Source of the DNA: Candidatus Falkowbacteria bacterium HGW-Falkowbacteria-1
Lineage (GTDB): Bacteria > Patescibacteriota > Patescibacteriia > Patescibacteriales > UBA12465
Direction: 5' to 3'
Assembly: GCA_002840305.1 (NCBI GenBank)
Contig: PHAI01000003.1
Span: 70,908-134,907, forward strand
DNA length: 64,000 bases
A program made the position numbers and the translations under genes. Positions 4,095-54,949 of this stretch are shown here, piece after piece (position 1 is the stretch's first letter; every line of letters begins with the position of its first letter). Below the pieces are notes generated by a model. That model saw nothing but the letters and a program-made list of their open reading frames with translations. It ran no database searches and was not told the origin of the DNA.

Positions 4095-4931
4095 TTAATT
4101 ATTTTGAGAAATATCAGAATAAGCTTCGTTTAAAAGCTCATAATAAACGCCTAAAAGATCGTCATCACTTAACAGGTTTAAATCATCATCGGAAAAACCA
4201 GCCTTTCTTAATTCTGTTCTTATTTCATCTGGAGATATTTGATAAGATTGAGAAATAGAACTATTGTCCGTAGAGCTTCCACTACCAGAGTTTAAAACAT
4301 TTAATATGTCACTATTGCCGTTAGAATCTAATAAAGGATTTGTAGTATTTTCGCTCTCCTGAGAACTTATCATCCCAGAGGAAGAGCAATTTTGGCCCTC
4401 AGGACAAAGTGGATCGGTTTTATAAACAGACGCTTCTTCATAGTCGGTCAAGTTATCCCCATCAGTATCTTCCAAATAGGGGGAGGTTCCATATATAAAA
4501 AGTTCATCCCAATCAGAAATACTATCACCATCAGTGTCAACAAGCTTCAAATCCATATTTTCAGCAGTCAAGCCAGATTCAGCCGAACAATTTCCGCTGC
4601 TACAAGTGCTATTGTCAGTGTTATTACTGGTGGCAGCAACATTTTTACCAGCATTAGGATCTCTTAATACAAAAGGAGATTGAATAAGACTTTTAATATT
4701 TAAAAAGGCTATGGTTATAATCAATAAGGAAAAAACACCTAAAACACCTAGGGCGATTTTTCTTTCTTTGTCTATTTTCTTAAAAGAAAAAGATCCTCCG
4801 CCCTCGCCTTTGTCGTCTCGACCGAGTGAAGCGAGTGGAGAGATCTGCCCTTGTTGATAATAAAGATTTTCGTCAAATTTTTCATTATCAAAATACTCCC
4901 GATATTTATTTTTATTATTATCGTTGGTCAT
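4095..4931 (-). CDS. Single-pass membrane protein with thrombospondin type 3-like Ca-binding repeats
   Basis: 278 aa. TM segment IALGVLGVFSLLIITIAFL. Repeats DTDGDSISDWDE and DTDGDNLTDYEE (DxDxD type). Its stop lies 18 nt upstream of the giant downstream gene. Confidence 0.6.
   Translation of the reverse strand: MTNDNNKNKYREYFDNEKFDENLYYQQGQISPLASLGRDDKGEGGGSFSFKKIDKERKIALGVLGVFSLLIITIAFLNIKSLIQSPFVLRDPNAGKNVAATSNNTDNSTCSSGNCSAESGLTAENMDLKLVDTDGDSISDWDELFIYGTSPYLEDTDGDNLTDYEEASVYKTDPLCPEGQNCSSSGMISSQESENTTNPLLDSNGNSDILNVLNSGSGSSTDNSSISQSYQISPDEIRTELRKAGFSDDDLNLLSDDDLLGVYYELLNEAYSDISQNN
4806..4846. repeat. Family-A palindromic repeat copy lying in-frame inside the 4095..4931 CDS
   Basis: gcctttgtcgtctcgaccgagtgaagcgagtggagagatct shares both termini (CCTTTGTCRTCTCGAC ... 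GGAGAGATC) with the copies at 4976-5081 and 9863-9913. It encodes QISPLASLGRDDKGEG. Confidence 0.6.
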
Positions 4932-4975
4932 AATAAAATATTATAATATTTTTTACAAAAAAGCAAGTAAATTTT

Positions 4976-5081
4976 CCCCTTTGTCATCTCGACTGGGCCA
5001 TCCTACGGATGGCGAGCAGAGAGGTCTTTCCCCTTTGTCATCTCGACTGAGCCATCCTACGGATGGCGAGCGGAGAGATCT
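4976..5081 (+). repeat. Two tandem family-A GC-rich palindromic repeats (54-nt period)
   Basis: cccctttgtcatctcgactgGgccatcctacggatggcgagcAgagaGGtct is followed by a near-identical second copy. Internal perfect stem GCCATCC-tac-GGATGGC. GC-rich island in AT-rich intergenic DNA. Confidence 0.85.
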
Positions 5082-5133
5082 GTTTACAATAAATTAAAGT
5101 TAAATTTATGATCGGTTTTTTATAATCTTATTT

Positions 5134-5439
5134 ATGAAAAATCGAGATTATAATTTTTATGTTTATATTTTAACTAATTATACTAAAAAAGTTTTTTATA
5201 TTGGAGTAACTAACAGTTTAATAGCTAGAATAAATATTCACAAAGAAAAAATTAACAAAAATTCTTTTACCAGCAAATACAATTGTGTCTATTTGGTTTA
5301 TTATGAACATTTTACTTATTATTACACAGCTTTTTTGAGAGAAAAACAACTAAAAAAATGGCGGAGAGAAAAGAAAGCCAACTTAATAAATAAATTTAAT
5401 CCTGATTGGAAAGATTTATATGGTTTAATTACGGGATAG
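5134..5439 (+). CDS. Small GIY-YIG nuclease-domain protein (COG2827/UPF0213-like)
   Basis: 101 aa. YNFYVYILTN....FYIGVTNSL..R...H and the later ...E..LKKW.R.KK pattern are typical of stand-alone GIY-YIG (YhbQ-like) proteins. Confidence 0.8.
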   Translation: MKNRDYNFYVYILTNYTKKVFYIGVTNSLIARINIHKEKINKNSFTSKYNCVYLVYYEHFTYYYTAFLREKQLKKWRREKKANLINKFNPDWKDLYGLITG

Positions 5440-5535
5440 CCCTCTCCGCTCATTCGTAACTTTGCTTCTCATTCGGTCGAGGTGACAAAGGGAAAACATC
5501 GCCTTACTCCTCGTTCAGTCGAGATGACAAAATGG
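5439..5535 (-). repeat. Two family-A repeat copies, inverted relative to 4976-5081
   Basis: The reverse complement of 5476-5492 is CCCTTTGTCACCTCGAC, matching the left-hand terminus CCCTTTGTCATCTCGAC at 16 of 17 positions. The reverse complement of 5497-5535 contains TTTTGTCATCTCGACTGA. The inner copy starts at the GIY-YIG stop codon. Confidence 0.75.
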
Positions 5536-9862: not shown

Positions 9863-9913
9863 CTCCTTTGTCATCTCGACTGAGCCATCCTGCGGATGGC
9901 GAATGGAGAGATC
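9863..9913 (+). repeat. Solo family-A palindromic repeat
   Basis: ctcctttgtcatctcgactgagccatcctgcggatggcgaatggagagatc is near-identical to the copies at 4976-5081. It lies intergenic between porG and the DsbA-like gene. Confidence 0.85.
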
Positions 9914-35253: not shown

Positions 35254-35355
35254 ATTTTAATACAAATTTAATTACAAGCTTATTATACCTCAAAAACTTT
35301 AGATTTAAAACTAGCACTCAGGTTCGAACACGACTCACGTAAAATCATCACACCC

Positions 35356-35406
35356 CTGCCGCAAGCCACACAGGCGGCTTGCTTCCCCTCGCTCATTCAA
35401 AAAAAA
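35356..35406. repeat. 51-nt direct repeat, copy 1 (hairpin GCAAGCC...GGCTTGC plus CCCCTCGCTCATTC plus A-run)
   Basis: ctgccgcaagccacAcaggCggcttgcttcccctcgctcattcaaaaaaa differs at 2 positions from the copy at 36106-36156. It overlaps the 3' end of the GIY-YIG gene. Confidence 0.85.
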
Positions 35407-35681
35407 TAAAAACCAGAAAAATAATTAGTTAACTGTTTTTTGATATATTTTCTCCCGGCCCCACTTTTTAAAAACGCCTCTCTCTTCATGGCGTCTTTTT
35501 TAATTAGATAAGCTTCATAATAAATAAGGTACCAAGCATTTTTTTTAGATGTCGTCTGACAACCCTTGCCAATTAAATGATCTCTAATTCTACGACGCAA
35601 ATTAGATGAATATCCCGTATACCAACTCTTATCATTTTTATTCTCTAAAATATAAATATAATACATCAAAATATTATACAA
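35397..35681 (-). CDS. Small GIY-YIG nuclease-domain protein (COG2827-like), second copy
   Basis: 94 aa. YYIYILEN.....YTGYSSNL..R...H and E.....K.A..RE..LK pattern. Confidence 0.8.
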   Translation of the reverse strand: MYNILMYYIYILENKNDKSWYTGYSSNLRRRIRDHLIGKGCQTTSKKNAWYLIYYEAYLIKKDAMKREAFLKSGAGRKYIKKQLTNYFSGFYFF

Positions 35682-35765
35682 AATAATAAATGAAAATAAG
35701 ATAAATAATATGTTTTTATTATCTAAATTAACTATTTATAAATAATATATCATTAACTAAACATG

Positions 35766-35935
35766 AAGCCACGTATAGATCGTTCGTCGCAAGCGACCTC
35801 ACTCGCACGTGGCTCGCGTAAAGTATCACGCGGCTGTGCCACGTGATAAAAATGGCCACGTGAAGTGCCCTTCGGGCACAACGTGGCTCGCGTAAAGCCT
35901 ACGGCCACGTGGCTTGCCTTCGGCTGCGCCGCGTG
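35766..35935. repeat. Cluster of GC-rich palindromic units built on GCCACGTG / CACGTGGC stems (family B)
   Basis: ACGTGGCTCGCGTAAAG occurs twice (about 35808 and 35881). There are several GCCACGT...ACGTGGC stems and a GTGCCC-TTCG-GGCAC hairpin. GC content is far above the flanks. Confidence 0.8.
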
Positions 35936-35940
35936 CAAAT

Positions 35941-36000
35941 CAAAAAACACCCATTGGGTGTTTTTTGATTTGTTTTACGCGGCTCGGGGACAGAGATTCG
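35941..36000. repeat. Duplicate of the tRNA-Gln terminator hairpin plus the tRNA 3' end
   Basis: Hairpin AACACCCA-tt-GGGTGTT, then gctcggggacagAgaTtcg, which matches 36185-36203 at 17 of 19 positions. The layout parallels 36148-36203. Confidence 0.75.
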
Positions 36001-36105
36001 GTCACGGTCACTAAGCCTCGCTTTCTCGCCTTGCTCGTCGCTCGCTAAGTGCCCCGACCCGGCCTCGCCCGTGCACTTCGTGCACATGGCTCCGGCTTTC
36101 GAGTC

Positions 36106-36156
36106 CTGCCGCAAGCCACGCAGGTGGCTTGCTTCCCCTCGCTCATTCAAAAAAAC
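36106..36156. repeat. 51-nt direct repeat, copy 2
   Basis: ctgccgcaagccacGcaggTggcttgcttcccctcgctcattcaaaaaaa with a perfect 9-bp stem GCAAGCCAC / GTGGCTTGC. Confidence 0.85.
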
Positions 36157-36177
36157 ACACCACAAGGTGTGTTTTTC
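36148..36177 (-). terminator. Intrinsic terminator downstream of tRNA-Gln
   Basis: On the minus strand, AAACACACC-ttgt-GGTGTGTTT is followed by TTTTT. Confidence 0.65.
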
Positions 36178-36185
36178 TTCATTCG

Positions 36186-36256
36186 CTCGGGGACAGGGAC
36201 TCGAACCCCGATCGACGCCTTCAAAGGGCGCTGTCCTACCATTAGACGATCCCCGA
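36186..36256 (-). tRNA. tRNA-Gln (anticodon UUG)
   Basis: Manual cloverleaf on the minus strand. Acceptor TCGGGGA/TCCCCGA (U1-A72). D arm GTCT-AATGGTA-GGAC. Anticodon arm GCGCC-CTTTGAA-GGCGT. T arm CGGGG-TTCGAGT-CCCTG. No encoded CCA. Confidence 0.88.
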
Positions 36257-36358
36257 ATTTTAATTAACAAAAATATAATAATAAATAACAACTTATAAGT
36301 CAAGAAATTTACTAAATTCCTACTTTTTTATATTTATTAAAAAATATAAAAAACCATT

Positions 36359-53455: not shown

Positions 53456-54949
53456 TTAGTCTTTTATGCAGCGAACCGAGCGACCGCCAGCACGATAAGC
53501 ATAATTGATATAAGCATTCGAAGGACAATATAAAAGATAGGCGTATTTATTATACACAGTGGAACTCCAAACATAACCCGCAACACCAACCTCATAAAAG
53601 CTGCCATTACTGAAAGTACGGCTGCCGGCTGCCGGCCATTTAAGAACAGAAGCCATGGCCCCTGACGGATTGTTGGAAGCCCAGCTCAACCTTTCAATAT
53701 CGAGTTCGTTTGATGTTGGAACTCGCCAGCCATCCGGACAGGGATTGTTTATCCCACTTACCCCTTGCCACAAACTATTTTTTTGAGGAACCCGCCAATC
53801 CTCGTTGTTTACATTAATGACTGCCTTTATAAAATTATTATGCCCTGGAGAATCAACAGAAGACGGGGTTGTCGTGGTCACACTAGTTCTTAACTGATGG
53901 CCATCAGCTCCTCTCCCCCATTGAAACAAATCACCATAACAGACAGGATCATTATAAGCCGCACAAACCTGAGATGCTCCTAAATTTCGATCAAGCCAGC
54001 ACTTAATATTTCCTCCCCCATAATCTTTTTCAACCGTTCCATAAGTTACTACGCCGCCATTGTAATCAAAAGTAACATTGTTTCCACAAACAAAAACTTC
54101 TTCTTCCCAAAGAGCATAAACAGTTAAGTCCCCGGCTATACTATAAATAGTATTCGACACATAATTATCGCCACTACCGTCAGATTCAGTGTCCCAACCT
54201 TGAAACACATAGCCATTCCTTGTTGGGATAGGTAATTCTTCAACCTCCTGATTATACACAACTAATTTAGAACTCGGGCTAACTCCTCCTCCCTGGGCAT
54301 TAAAGCTTAATGTATATGTATTAGCAATAAACTGAGCCGTAACATTTGTGTTTTCTTGAACATTGCTATCCATTCTAAATGCCGCAACCATTCCATCAGA
54401 CCACTGAAAAAATGAATAGCCTAAATTGGCCTGTGCCTCCACAGGGCTTCCATCTTCTCCTCTATTAACTGTTTGATTTATATTGCCCATGATGATACCG
54501 CCGACATCAGCTGTGTAATTCAAAAAAAATACGTCCACCACTCCACCATCTGTTTCCCCAGAAACAGCCACGACTCCTCCTGGGGTTACTCTTTTCGCCC
54601 CCTCTGGCATATCTGATATTTGTTTGCCGGTACAGAAATCTATAGTATAACTAGCTCCACTATTTTGAGGTATATAAGAATAAGTATTAGAAGCCTCTAG
54701 ACAATCGCCATCGGCAGGAGATGGAGCGGTAGGAATGTTGTACATAAATATTTCTCCGGTAGTAGAAGAGGTGATAGAGCCGCTGTTCCATTCATCTGTG
54801 GTAGGGTATCTACCGTTTTCATTAAAGAATAGTTCTAGAGTAGCCAGTATGCCTATGATAGCTATTACTACTAGAAGCTCTATTAGAGTGAAGCCACGTA
54901 AAAACGCTTCGCGTTCACGTGGCAAGGCTTTTTGTTTTGTTTTGAACAT
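53456..54949 (-). CDS. Type IV pilin-like protein fused to a Listeria-Bacteroides repeat and a FISUMP (Fibrobacter paralogous) domain
   Basis: 497 aa. GFTLIELLVVIAIIGILA pilin N-terminus. YTLSFNAQGG......NGYVFQGWDT....G repeat. C-terminal W..RNLG.....G.LFQWGR ... GYVWSST ... GRSVRCIKD. Confidence 0.75.
   Translation of the reverse strand: MFKTKQKALPREREAFLRGFTLIELLVVIAIIGILATLELFFNENGRYPTTDEWNSGSITSSTTGEIFMYNIPTAPSPADGDCLEASNTYSYIPQNSGASYTIDFCTGKQISDMPEGAKRVTPGGVVAVSGETDGGVVDVFFLNYTADVGGIIMGNINQTVNRGEDGSPVEAQANLGYSFFQWSDGMVAAFRMDSNVQENTNVTAQFIANTYTLSFNAQGGGVSPSSKLVVYNQEVEELPIPTRNGYVFQGWDTESDGSGDNYVSNTIYSIAGDLTVYALWEEEVFVCGNNVTFDYNGGVVTYGTVEKDYGGGNIKCWLDRNLGASQVCAAYNDPVCYGDLFQWGRGADGHQLRTSVTTTTPSSVDSPGHNNFIKAVINVNNEDWRVPQKNSLWQGVSGINNPCPDGWRVPTSNELDIERLSWASNNPSGAMASVLKWPAAGSRTFSNGSFYEVGVAGYVWSSTVYNKYAYLLYCPSNAYINYAYRAGGRSVRCIKD
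54893..54923. repeat. Family-B GC-rich palindrome embedded in-frame in the prepilin leader
   Basis: The minus-sense sequence is GCCACGT-GAACGC-GAA-GCGTT-TTT-ACGTGGC. It encodes ALPREREAFLRG immediately before the FTLIELL cleavage region. Confidence 0.7.

Follow-up and report, generated by a model that had tools for sequence, protein, structure and literature searches.

The 64,000-nucleotide stretch of Candidatus Falkowbacteria bacterium HGW-Falkowbacteria-1 analyzed here (contig PHAI01000003.1, positions 70,908–134,907; referred to as the window and numbered from its first letter) contains a tRNA-Gln(UUG) gene followed by two small nested modules: a non-coding structured element of 203 nt, which we call element E, and a cassette composed of a hairpin-rich leader and a gene for an 89-residue GIY-YIG nuclease. 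Sequence comparisons lead us to favor, with about even confidence, a reading in which the locus is a tRNA-3′-end insertion site and the two modules are small mobile units of Falkowbacteria-like Patescibacteria that spread in a homing-like manner. The anatomy of the modules, the covariation in their stems, the fixed insertion junctions, the empty and filled sites, the range of tRNA genes used and the lack of a nearby recombinase gene are direct observations. A trans-acting integrase and an RNA function for E are both real alternatives.

All genes of the locus are on the minus strand. FtsE and FtsX come first, then a promoter-like site and the tRNA-Gln(UUG) gene; some 500 nt of non-coding, GC-rich DNA and an AT-rich spacer lie between the tRNA and the GIY-YIG open reading frame (ORF), which is followed, after a spacer of about 140 nt, by a hydrolase gene. 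The window is AT-rich (33% GC), and the palindrome-rich stretch at 35760–36256 has a GC content of 51–67%. Comparison loci from relatives and metagenome contigs are numbered L009–L074; the first comparison set comprises 34 loci encoding FtsX relatives. Features of the locus described below lie on the minus strand unless stated otherwise.

Element E (35982–36184) lies next to the tRNA-Gln(UUG) gene (36185–36256; called by ARAGORN, Rfam score 61.9 bits). Three parts make up the element: a hairpin shaped like a terminator, a structured, GC-rich body of 167 nt and a repeat of the tRNA 3′ end. Homologues are present in L011, L014, L020, L039 and L044–L060. The first part of the element is hairpin 1 (36149–36176; AAAAACACACC TTGT GGTGTGTTTTT). 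Repeat search and alignment place copy A of a 51-nt repeat at 36105–36155, where it covers a T-run, the 5′ arm of E (GAGCGAGGGGA) and the P2 hairpin. The element ends in a 19-nt copy of the tRNA-Gln 3′ end, from the T-loop half to C74 (35982–36000). The 5′ arm is the reverse complement of the last 17–19 nt of the adjacent tRNA (the T-loop half, the 3′ strand of the T stem and the 3′ strand of the acceptor stem), and the 3′ end is a direct copy of the same 17–19 nt. The tRNA-sense strand of E, once folded, therefore forms a duplex resembling the tRNA gene end.

Several of these repeats had been noticed in an earlier, sequence-only reading of this DNA. The 51-nt direct repeats that it described lie at 35355–35405 and 36105–36155 (49/51 identical; the coordinates given at the time were off by at most one base), and the tRNA-Gln 3′ end at 36185–36203 is indeed duplicated at 35982–36000 (17/19 identical). 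A degenerate 44-nt pattern of the longer repeat has two matches in the window with 0.00 expected, and a pattern of the 19-nt tRNA end has two with 0.01 expected. The terminator was also said to be duplicated. A hairpin with an A-run, a GC stem and a T-run does follow each tRNA-end copy, but neither is called by a simple terminator scan because the T-run is consumed in the stem; the word terminator, as applied to these hairpins, is meant to describe shape only. Hairpins of the hairpin 1 type accompany E in other genomes; the two E copies of L039 have identical ones, and so do the two of L052.

A pattern taken from two conserved blocks of E retrieved 19 further copies from 17 metagenome contigs. 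Sixteen non-identical copies were aligned and used to build a covariance model, which gives 26 significant matches across the window and 61 loci, all of them beside the 3′ end of a tRNA, intact or as a decayed copy; the E of the window scores 157 bits (E = 2.4e-36). The consensus fold of the 16 copies has 45 base pairs, 16 of which show compensatory changes, and 97.6% of the alignment cells are paired. The 16 double-sided changes compare with 10.4 ± 1.6 in shuffled alignments, of which 0 of 500 reach this number, and with at most 3 in slid controls. On the tRNA-sense strand about 34 cells are G-U and about 10 are A-C, with one pair being G-U in 8 of the 16 sequences. This abundance of G-U and scarcity of A-C indicates that the tRNA-sense strand is the one that folds, as RNA or as single-stranded DNA.

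The outer helices of the fold are formed between the 5′ arm and the tRNA-end copy. One is acceptor-stem-like (GC..GGGGA/TCCCC..GC) and the other T-stem-like (CAGGGAT/ATCCCTG), and the latter exists in four matched forms, each in step with the local tRNA: CAGGG/CCCTG, CTAGG/CCTAG, TAGGG/CCCTA and CAAGG/CCTTG. At L011, L014, L020 and L039 the tRNA is followed by the hairpin, about 170 nt of sequence and an exact copy of the last 19 nt of the local tRNA, and this copy tracks local tRNA variants (for example, CCTCGAGC in L014). Direct repeats of the tRNA 3′ end that flank the insert, next to an intact tRNA, are likewise found in L011, L014, L039 and L048–L060.

A strong fold could also belong to a functional tRNA-derived non-coding RNA gene, transcribed together with the tRNA or following it and passed on mainly by vertical inheritance, in which case its absences would result from deletion between the 19-nt repeats and the GIY-YIG gene would be an unrelated neighbor using the tRNA promoter. 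We consider this explanation unlikely. It fits a GC-rich E in a 33% GC genome, the strong covariation with G-U pairs tolerated on the sense strand, the fold z-score of −6.4 for tRNA plus E and the divergence of E between the window and L039 (80% identity), which resembles that of the flanking genes (79–80%). However, one and the same core follows tRNAs for Gln, Met and Thr, its end matching that of the tRNA in every case; E has therefore moved between sites, and at some loci two copies flank cargo. No promoter is visible between the hairpin and the E body, and since the closing helix leaves no free acceptor end, E is not an analog of tRNA or tmRNA. No known Rfam family accounts for the E body either: beyond the tRNA itself, the Rfam 15 search gave only scattered matches to microRNA (miRNA) and small RNA (sRNA) models, far below gathering scores (best E = 0.0068, on hairpin 2).

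Other identities for E were considered and rejected. Neither ARAGORN nor Rfam calls a tRNA pseudogene or tmRNA within it, and the closed outer helix also speaks against these assignments. Group I or group II introns and small ribozymes have no Rfam match in E even at permissive E-values. Two ORFs of 33 and 37 residues (the start reading MSEGKQA) are not kept in frame between copies, whose indels have lengths that are not divisible by three. Nor are the two differences that separate the 51-nt copies (A/G and C/T) adenine-specific, as those in the repeats of a diversity-generating retroelement would be. A phage origin finds no counterpart in viral contigs, which hold no E-like pattern and no GIY-YIG relative.

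E adjoins tRNA-Gln(UUG), tRNA-Gln(CUG), tRNA-Met and tRNA-Thr genes or decayed tRNA ends, and behind tRNA-Gln(CUG) it sits in other gene neighborhoods. After the tRNA-Met gene of L060, its 3′ copy is GATTCCTCCCACCGACA and its arm GAGGAATC; after the tRNA-Thr(CGU) gene of L037, the copy is AAATCCCACTTTCGGCT, and the arm GTGGGATTTGAA matches it inversely over 12 nt without a mismatch. The arm match is perfect over 11–12 nt for the Thr, the Met and some of the Gln tRNAs.

Comparison with related tRNA-Gln loci, which had been proposed as a check, gave exact empty sites. In L010 the tRNA is followed directly by AATGATCTGTACCCC, and in L014 E stands between the tRNA and the same AATGATCTGTACCCC; L026 and L039 form a second empty/filled pair. 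These sites were compared on raw sequences, a MAFFT alignment having misplaced the short flank. Such pairs establish E as a discrete insertion/deletion unit of about 200 nt. The order FtsE–FtsX–tRNA-Gln is kept in relatives and nothing is shared downstream of the tRNA, even at 85% FtsX identity. The tRNA-Gln 3′ end is an insertion site, as the sequence-only reading had suggested. Of the two origins entertained there, repeated insertion of GIY-YIG-associated elements at a preferred site comes close to the picture from our comparisons. A decayed island boundary does not: the 19-nt copy is no leftover scar but forms the conserved 3′ terminus of a structured, discrete element that has stayed intact across genomes. 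The integration-scar interpretation is only partly right.

Ordinary dispersed repeats of the repetitive extragenic palindromic (REP) or miniature inverted-repeat transposable element (MITE) type, or chance similarity near a tRNA, were considered as a further source of such sequences, and the window does contain other GC-rich hairpin repeat families (4795–5535, around another GIY-YIG gene, and 9865–9913). Generic dispersed repeats without a link to tRNA or GIY-YIG genes were the outcome that would have overturned the sequence-only reading. This explanation is itself refuted by the repeat counts and by placement at tRNA ends, and we regard it as highly improbable. E occurs twice in 64 kb, both times at the tRNA-Gln locus; other contigs hold one or two copies each; all copies found elsewhere lie against a tRNA end, in some cases a decayed one; and the chance expectation is 0.00–0.01.

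Some loci carry E in arrays. L039 reads tRNA, E, 1.55 kb of cargo, E and native flank, with the cargo starting with the native tRNA flank of L026, and two E copies surround cargo genes in L051 and L052 as well. Arrays of this kind suggest that tRNA ends and E copies act as portable homology for swapping downstream genes. The ORFs adjacent to E are ordinary or orphan accessory genes. A motif of about 40 nt resembling a decayed tRNA 3′ half (TTAGCCAC..GTTCGAAC..CCGAGC) precedes the internal E in L039 (6760–6801), L052 (3935–3975), L050 (2510–2554), L059 and L046, and appears to mark the right end of cargo modules.

The second E of the window is truncated (35322–35405) and consists of copy B of the 51-nt repeat joined to a decayed 3′ end, as identified by repeat search and covariance model. 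Copy B (35355–35405) forms the start of this element and overlaps the stop codon of the GIY-YIG gene (35397–35399). The model matches 35322–35397 with 26.6 bits (E = 2.4e-4 over 438 kb, 6e-7 locally) and places the 3′ end on a decayed T-loop-like motif. The sequence at 35314–35344 reads TTTTACGTGAG, an inverted copy of the left end of the cassette (CGCGTAAAA), followed by the T-loop-like remnant GTGTTCGAACCTGAGTGC. Comparable decayed motifs, running from the T loop to the 3′ end, lie before or after modules in L044, L053, L069, L070 and L071. The 51-nt repeats, described earlier as bracketing the GIY-YIG gene and the palindrome cluster, are in fact the homologous 5′ parts of two E copies, one full and one truncated, and a reading of them as repeats made by an insertion is not supported.

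Between the two E copies lies the GIY-YIG cassette. Its gene (35397–35666) encodes an 89-residue protein made up of the catalytic domain only (Pfam PF01541, E = 1.8e-15, residues 6–75 of a 94-residue reading from an upstream TTG start). Structure-database searches match residues 2–85 to PDB 1zg2_A (BH0048, UPF0213; E = 2.8e-11) and 1ywl_A (E = 4e-5), and by this significant full-length similarity the protein belongs to the UPF0213/prokaryotic Slx1-like GIY-YIG group. The 89-residue protein has no separate DNA-binding domain and no curated function, and its homologues are 84–98 residues long; a database protein of Candidatus Falkowbacteria HGW-Falkowbacteria-1 matches it with 100% identity.

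The leader (35667–35981) begins with the left end CGCGTAAAA, which abuts the tRNA-end copy of E. It contains the H1 clamp, in which 35977–35983 pairs with 35928–35934 around hairpin 2 (35936–35972, with perfect 18-bp arms); a cluster of three or four H2 hairpins (GCCACGT...ACGTGGC; 35763–35913); and an AT-rich spacer with a TATAAT at 35673–35678. The GC-rich palindrome cluster noted earlier is real and resolves into H1 plus the three or four H2 copies. GCCACGT occurs nine times in the window with 1.35 expected, and seven of the nine are in the leader. In another sample of the same population (L009), 23 nt (GAGCCACGTGCGAGTGAGGTCGC) of one H2 hairpin are missing (35793–35815); the locus is otherwise identical in all assemblies.

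The same junction and covarying H1 and H2 stems are found in L016, L061, L066, L069, L070, L072, L073 and L074. The junction is constant, with ...GAGC or ...GCAAC followed by CRCGTAAAA. In H1, GCC(R)CGT, which includes the last tRNA bases, pairs with ACG(Y)GGC around a hairpin with A/T-runs, and R and Y covary (GCCGCGT/ACGCGGC and GCCACGT/ACGTGGC). H2 has the form GNCNCGTGA...TTACGNGNC in at least four covarying versions and ends about 10 nt before the start codon in short leaders. An H2-type hairpin (AAGCCACGTGCGAAC..GCTATACGTGGC) is also inserted in the P4 region of some E copies (L039 6935–6990, L044 and L051), which indicates that this unit of the cassette can move alone.

We examined the contexts of GIY-YIG homologues that are 62–87% identical to the protein of the window. 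These genes lie directly downstream, on the same strand, of tRNA-Gln(UUG) in L016 and L066–68, of tRNA-Gln(CUG) in L061–63 and of tRNA-Met(CAT) in L072 and L073, the last two being different tRNA genes. In L069 the gene follows a tRNA 3′ end cut off at the contig start, in L070 the same junction stands behind a decayed tRNA-end-like sequence, and in L074, as in the window, the cassette follows the 3′ copy of E. Altogether, ...GAGC followed by CRCGTAAAA is seen after tRNA-Gln or tRNA-Met genes in seven independent contexts. One homologue (67% identical; L064 377–3285) has no tRNA nearby; a large serine recombinase is encoded on the other strand at a distance of 1.3 kb, and the leader of the homologue nonetheless starts with AGCCGCGCAAAA.

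The nearest relatives lack the cassette at this locus. Between the window and L016, identity reaches 97% in the leader but only 73–75% in the FtsE/FtsX DNA and 77% in the GIY-YIG ORF. The cassette is therefore mosaic and has been exchanged horizontally.

Element E and the cassette use the same insertion point and have a common tRNA range (Gln-UUG, Gln-CUG and Met). A remnant of E behind the cassette is clear in the window, where the 5′ part is retained. Sequence comparison identifies a remnant in L061–63 as well, comprising a collapsed P4 helix and a tRNA-end copy, for which the covariance-model matches are marginal (18 bits, E = 0.026). In L071 the evidence is limited to a motif of 9 nt. Applied to the GIY-YIG loci, the model detects no E remnant at L066 or L073, and at L074 it finds a significant 3′ part of E, but upstream of the cassette; the idea that every cassette ends in an E remnant is thus only partly borne out. 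L048 and L061 represent the same locus in related genomes, the former with a full E and the latter with the cassette and an E remnant. The cassette abuts the 19-nt copy of E in the window and in L074, and so a tRNA end of 19 nt or less, possibly within the E fold, may suffice as its target.

The tRNA gene of the window is itself a mosaic. Its body, with the anticodon stem AGCGCCC and the T loop TTCGAGT, does not differ from the one in L029, a distant relative with only 62% FtsX identity. Relatives at 59–85% FtsX identity all carry another tRNA-Gln allele, and the nearest FtsX relatives differ in the anticodon stem and the T loop. By sequence type, the tRNA body is a foreign allele and the upstream promoter region is native. 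The latter contains a promoter-like site (TTGACT-17-TATTAT; 36275–36303, minus strand; 10/12 matches in a consensus scan) whose TTGAC box is invariant in an alignment of seven sequences from the window and relatives. The distal 19-nt copy in E is also of native type, with CGAATC where the present tRNA-Gln has CGAGTC. In L052, L058 and L014 the arm and the 3′ copy of E are of different types. These chimeras imply junctions at differing positions; the cases are few, and later mutation could have contributed.

Junctions that vary in this way are more in keeping with break repair templated on a filled allele, with co-conversion of variable length, than with a single fixed crossover. The homing-like reading that we favor would work as follows. 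Both modules would spread by double-strand-break repair (gene conversion), with the intact tRNA providing homology on the left and the short tRNA-end copy homology on the right. The GIY-YIG protein, probably a structure-specific nuclease, would make the break, and E would be the ORF-less partner of the ORF-bearing cassette. Slx1-type enzymes cut branched or hairpin DNA, and the T arm, E, H1 and H2 are candidate hairpin-extruding targets that would suit such an activity. Once resident, E and the tRNA-end copies would then provide the homology for exchange of downstream accessory genes.

Alternatively, E and the cassette could be integrative elements of a miniature, non-autonomous kind, or else attL and attR arms that were joined when islands were deleted, acted on by a tyrosine or serine integrase encoded elsewhere in the genome or on a phage or plasmid, with the 17–19-nt tRNA end as the core of the attachment (att) site. 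An insert flanked by direct repeats from the T loop to the tRNA 3′ end, empty sites in relatives and tandem arrays at a single tRNA are all features that such a system would produce, and the GIY-YIG homologue of L064 does lie near a large serine recombinase gene. We nevertheless think that this explanation is improbable. The genes within ±6 kb of the window locus and those beside the E copies inspected include no integrase, and nothing similar is present in viral contigs. The chimera junctions are not fixed: in the window the whole tRNA body is replaced, and in L052 a donor-type arm accompanies two copies of the recipient type. Furthermore, neither 16 covarying pairs nor a guide-like arm that is matched anew to four tRNA species is what one would expect of attP arm sites.

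A number of points weigh against the homing-like reading. It depends on a few chimeric cases, one of which hangs on a single base, and we infer cleavage, excision and transfer by the modules from sequence. An 89-residue protein that lacks a DNA-binding domain leaves recognition of the tRNA end unexplained. The similar divergence of E and of its flanking genes between the window and L039 also fits long vertical residence. No recombinase domain was found among the genes within ±6 kb of the locus or among ten scanned ORFs adjacent to E, but whole genomes were not searched for one acting in trans. Most E copies have no GIY-YIG gene in the few kb available, and some cassettes (L016, L066) have no E. 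With the modules so often apart, the link between them is circumstantial and consists of the same site, the same tRNA range and the remnants behind some cassettes. Finally, a pure gene-conversion model assigns the conserved fold of E no role.

To a more speculative proposal we give even less credence than to the integrase or RNA-gene explanations. Here E would be a programmable target mimic or guide, with its arm re-templated for each tRNA species, that directs a cut by the Slx1-like GIY-YIG protein or the joining of single-stranded E DNA or RNA. The modules would then form a new nucleic-acid-guided homing system at tRNA ends and a platform for cassette exchange of accessory genes.

Other sequences in these genomes bear on the same site or on related genes. 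Exactly this junction is taken by a third element, small and AT-rich, behind tRNA-Gln in L018 (5130–5290), L023 (5039–5200) and L030 (5078–5240) and behind E in L049; it reads AGATGTYTCTCTTTTGTGAGAGACCGA...GTGGTTCGAATCCCATTTGGGTC and terminates in a T-loop-like motif. Nine of the relatives' 32 contigs (L012, L015, L017, L019, L021, L025, L031, L034 and L036) break inside tRNA-Gln or exactly at its 3′ end, which suggests population heterogeneity or repeats there. The other GIY-YIG gene of the window (5134–5439, plus strand; 38% identical to the one studied here) has a GC-rich repeat family of its own on both sides, TTTCCCCTTTGTCATCTCGAC[hairpin]GAGAGATC, within 4795–5535. The members of this family are a tandem pair, an additional upstream copy, inverted copies on the downstream side and another copy at 9865–9913. 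Each stand-alone GIY-YIG gene may have its own hairpin-repeat family. An H2-type hairpin (GCCACGTAAAAACGCTTCGCGTTCACGTGGC) is also present at 54893–54923, inside the 5′ end of the minus-strand ORF 53456–54949. The N-terminus of this ORF looks prepilin-leader-like (...RGFTLIELLVV...), with a mini-palindrome of the cassette-leader type apparently inserted in frame.

No description of either module turned up in Rfam, in viral contigs or in the literature searchable under Patescibacteria tRNA integration, GIY-YIG, UPF0213/YhbQ and tRNA-like att sites, and each resembles known systems in part. The T loop is reportedly one of the sublocations of att sites in tRNA genes. Tandem integrase-mediated islands at ssrA in Dehalococcoides are flanked by direct repeats of the gene's 3′ end (PMC3146451). 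Like islands that target tRNA and tmRNA genes, the locus has an intact tRNA with a displaced copy from the T loop to the 3′ end, empty sites and modules stacked at one tRNA. It differs in that no integrase is seen nearby, the junctions are variable and one module is a 200-nt non-coding element with a covarying fold and an internal inverse copy of the core.

Intronless homing involves co-conversion of flanks. Among free-standing GIY-YIG homing endonuclease genes of phages, T4 SegB lies in a tRNA gene cluster (PMC2988022, PMC13096335). The cassette shares with such genes a place beside tRNA genes, a patchy distribution at a fixed site, DNA far more conserved than its flanks and signs of co-conversion. 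Unlike them, it encodes a bare 89-residue UPF0213/Slx1-like domain in a patescibacterial host and has a structured leader that pairs with the last tRNA bases.

Autonomous and non-autonomous partners are familiar from insertion sequences (IS) and MITEs, from REPs and REP-associated tyrosine transposases (RAYTs) and from group I introns with and without a homing endonuclease gene. The two modules resemble these pairs in that an ORF-bearing and an ORF-less structured module have a common target and range, with the ORF flanked by ORF-less fragments. In contrast to them, there are one or two copies per genome, all at tRNA ends, and no transposase or ribozyme family match. Recombination sites that act as folded single strands include integron attC and the attP(+) of CTX phage, which mimics dif. 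The folded strand of E similarly rebuilds the duplex of its target site, and E copies separate cargo genes behind a fixed site; the target here is a tRNA end, and the likeness is structural only.

The stand-alone UPF0213/YhbQ/prokaryotic Slx1-like GIY-YIG family has no assigned function (PDB 1zg2, 1ywl; Dunin-Horkawicz et al. 2006, PMC1564403). The 89-residue protein matches this family in sequence and size. The 2006 survey of GIY-YIG proteins mentions no tRNA-adjacent cassettes, only a fusion to a TrmH-like tRNA methyltransferase (PMC1564403).

The two modules look like undescribed mobile DNA that is specific for tRNA ends. If the homing-like reading is true, a selfish cassette aimed at the ends of tRNA genes would be the first functional context for stand-alone GIY-YIG proteins of the UPF0213/YhbQ, Slx1-like type. 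Element E is a new structured element of about 170 nt, not in Rfam, that copies and mirrors the end of the neighboring tRNA, and its guide-like arm, changing with the tRNA species, is directly testable. The modules would also account for the breaks in gene order and assembly that fall exactly at tRNA-Gln in this reduced-genome clade, and they point to a recombinase-free route by which its members may swap accessory genes.

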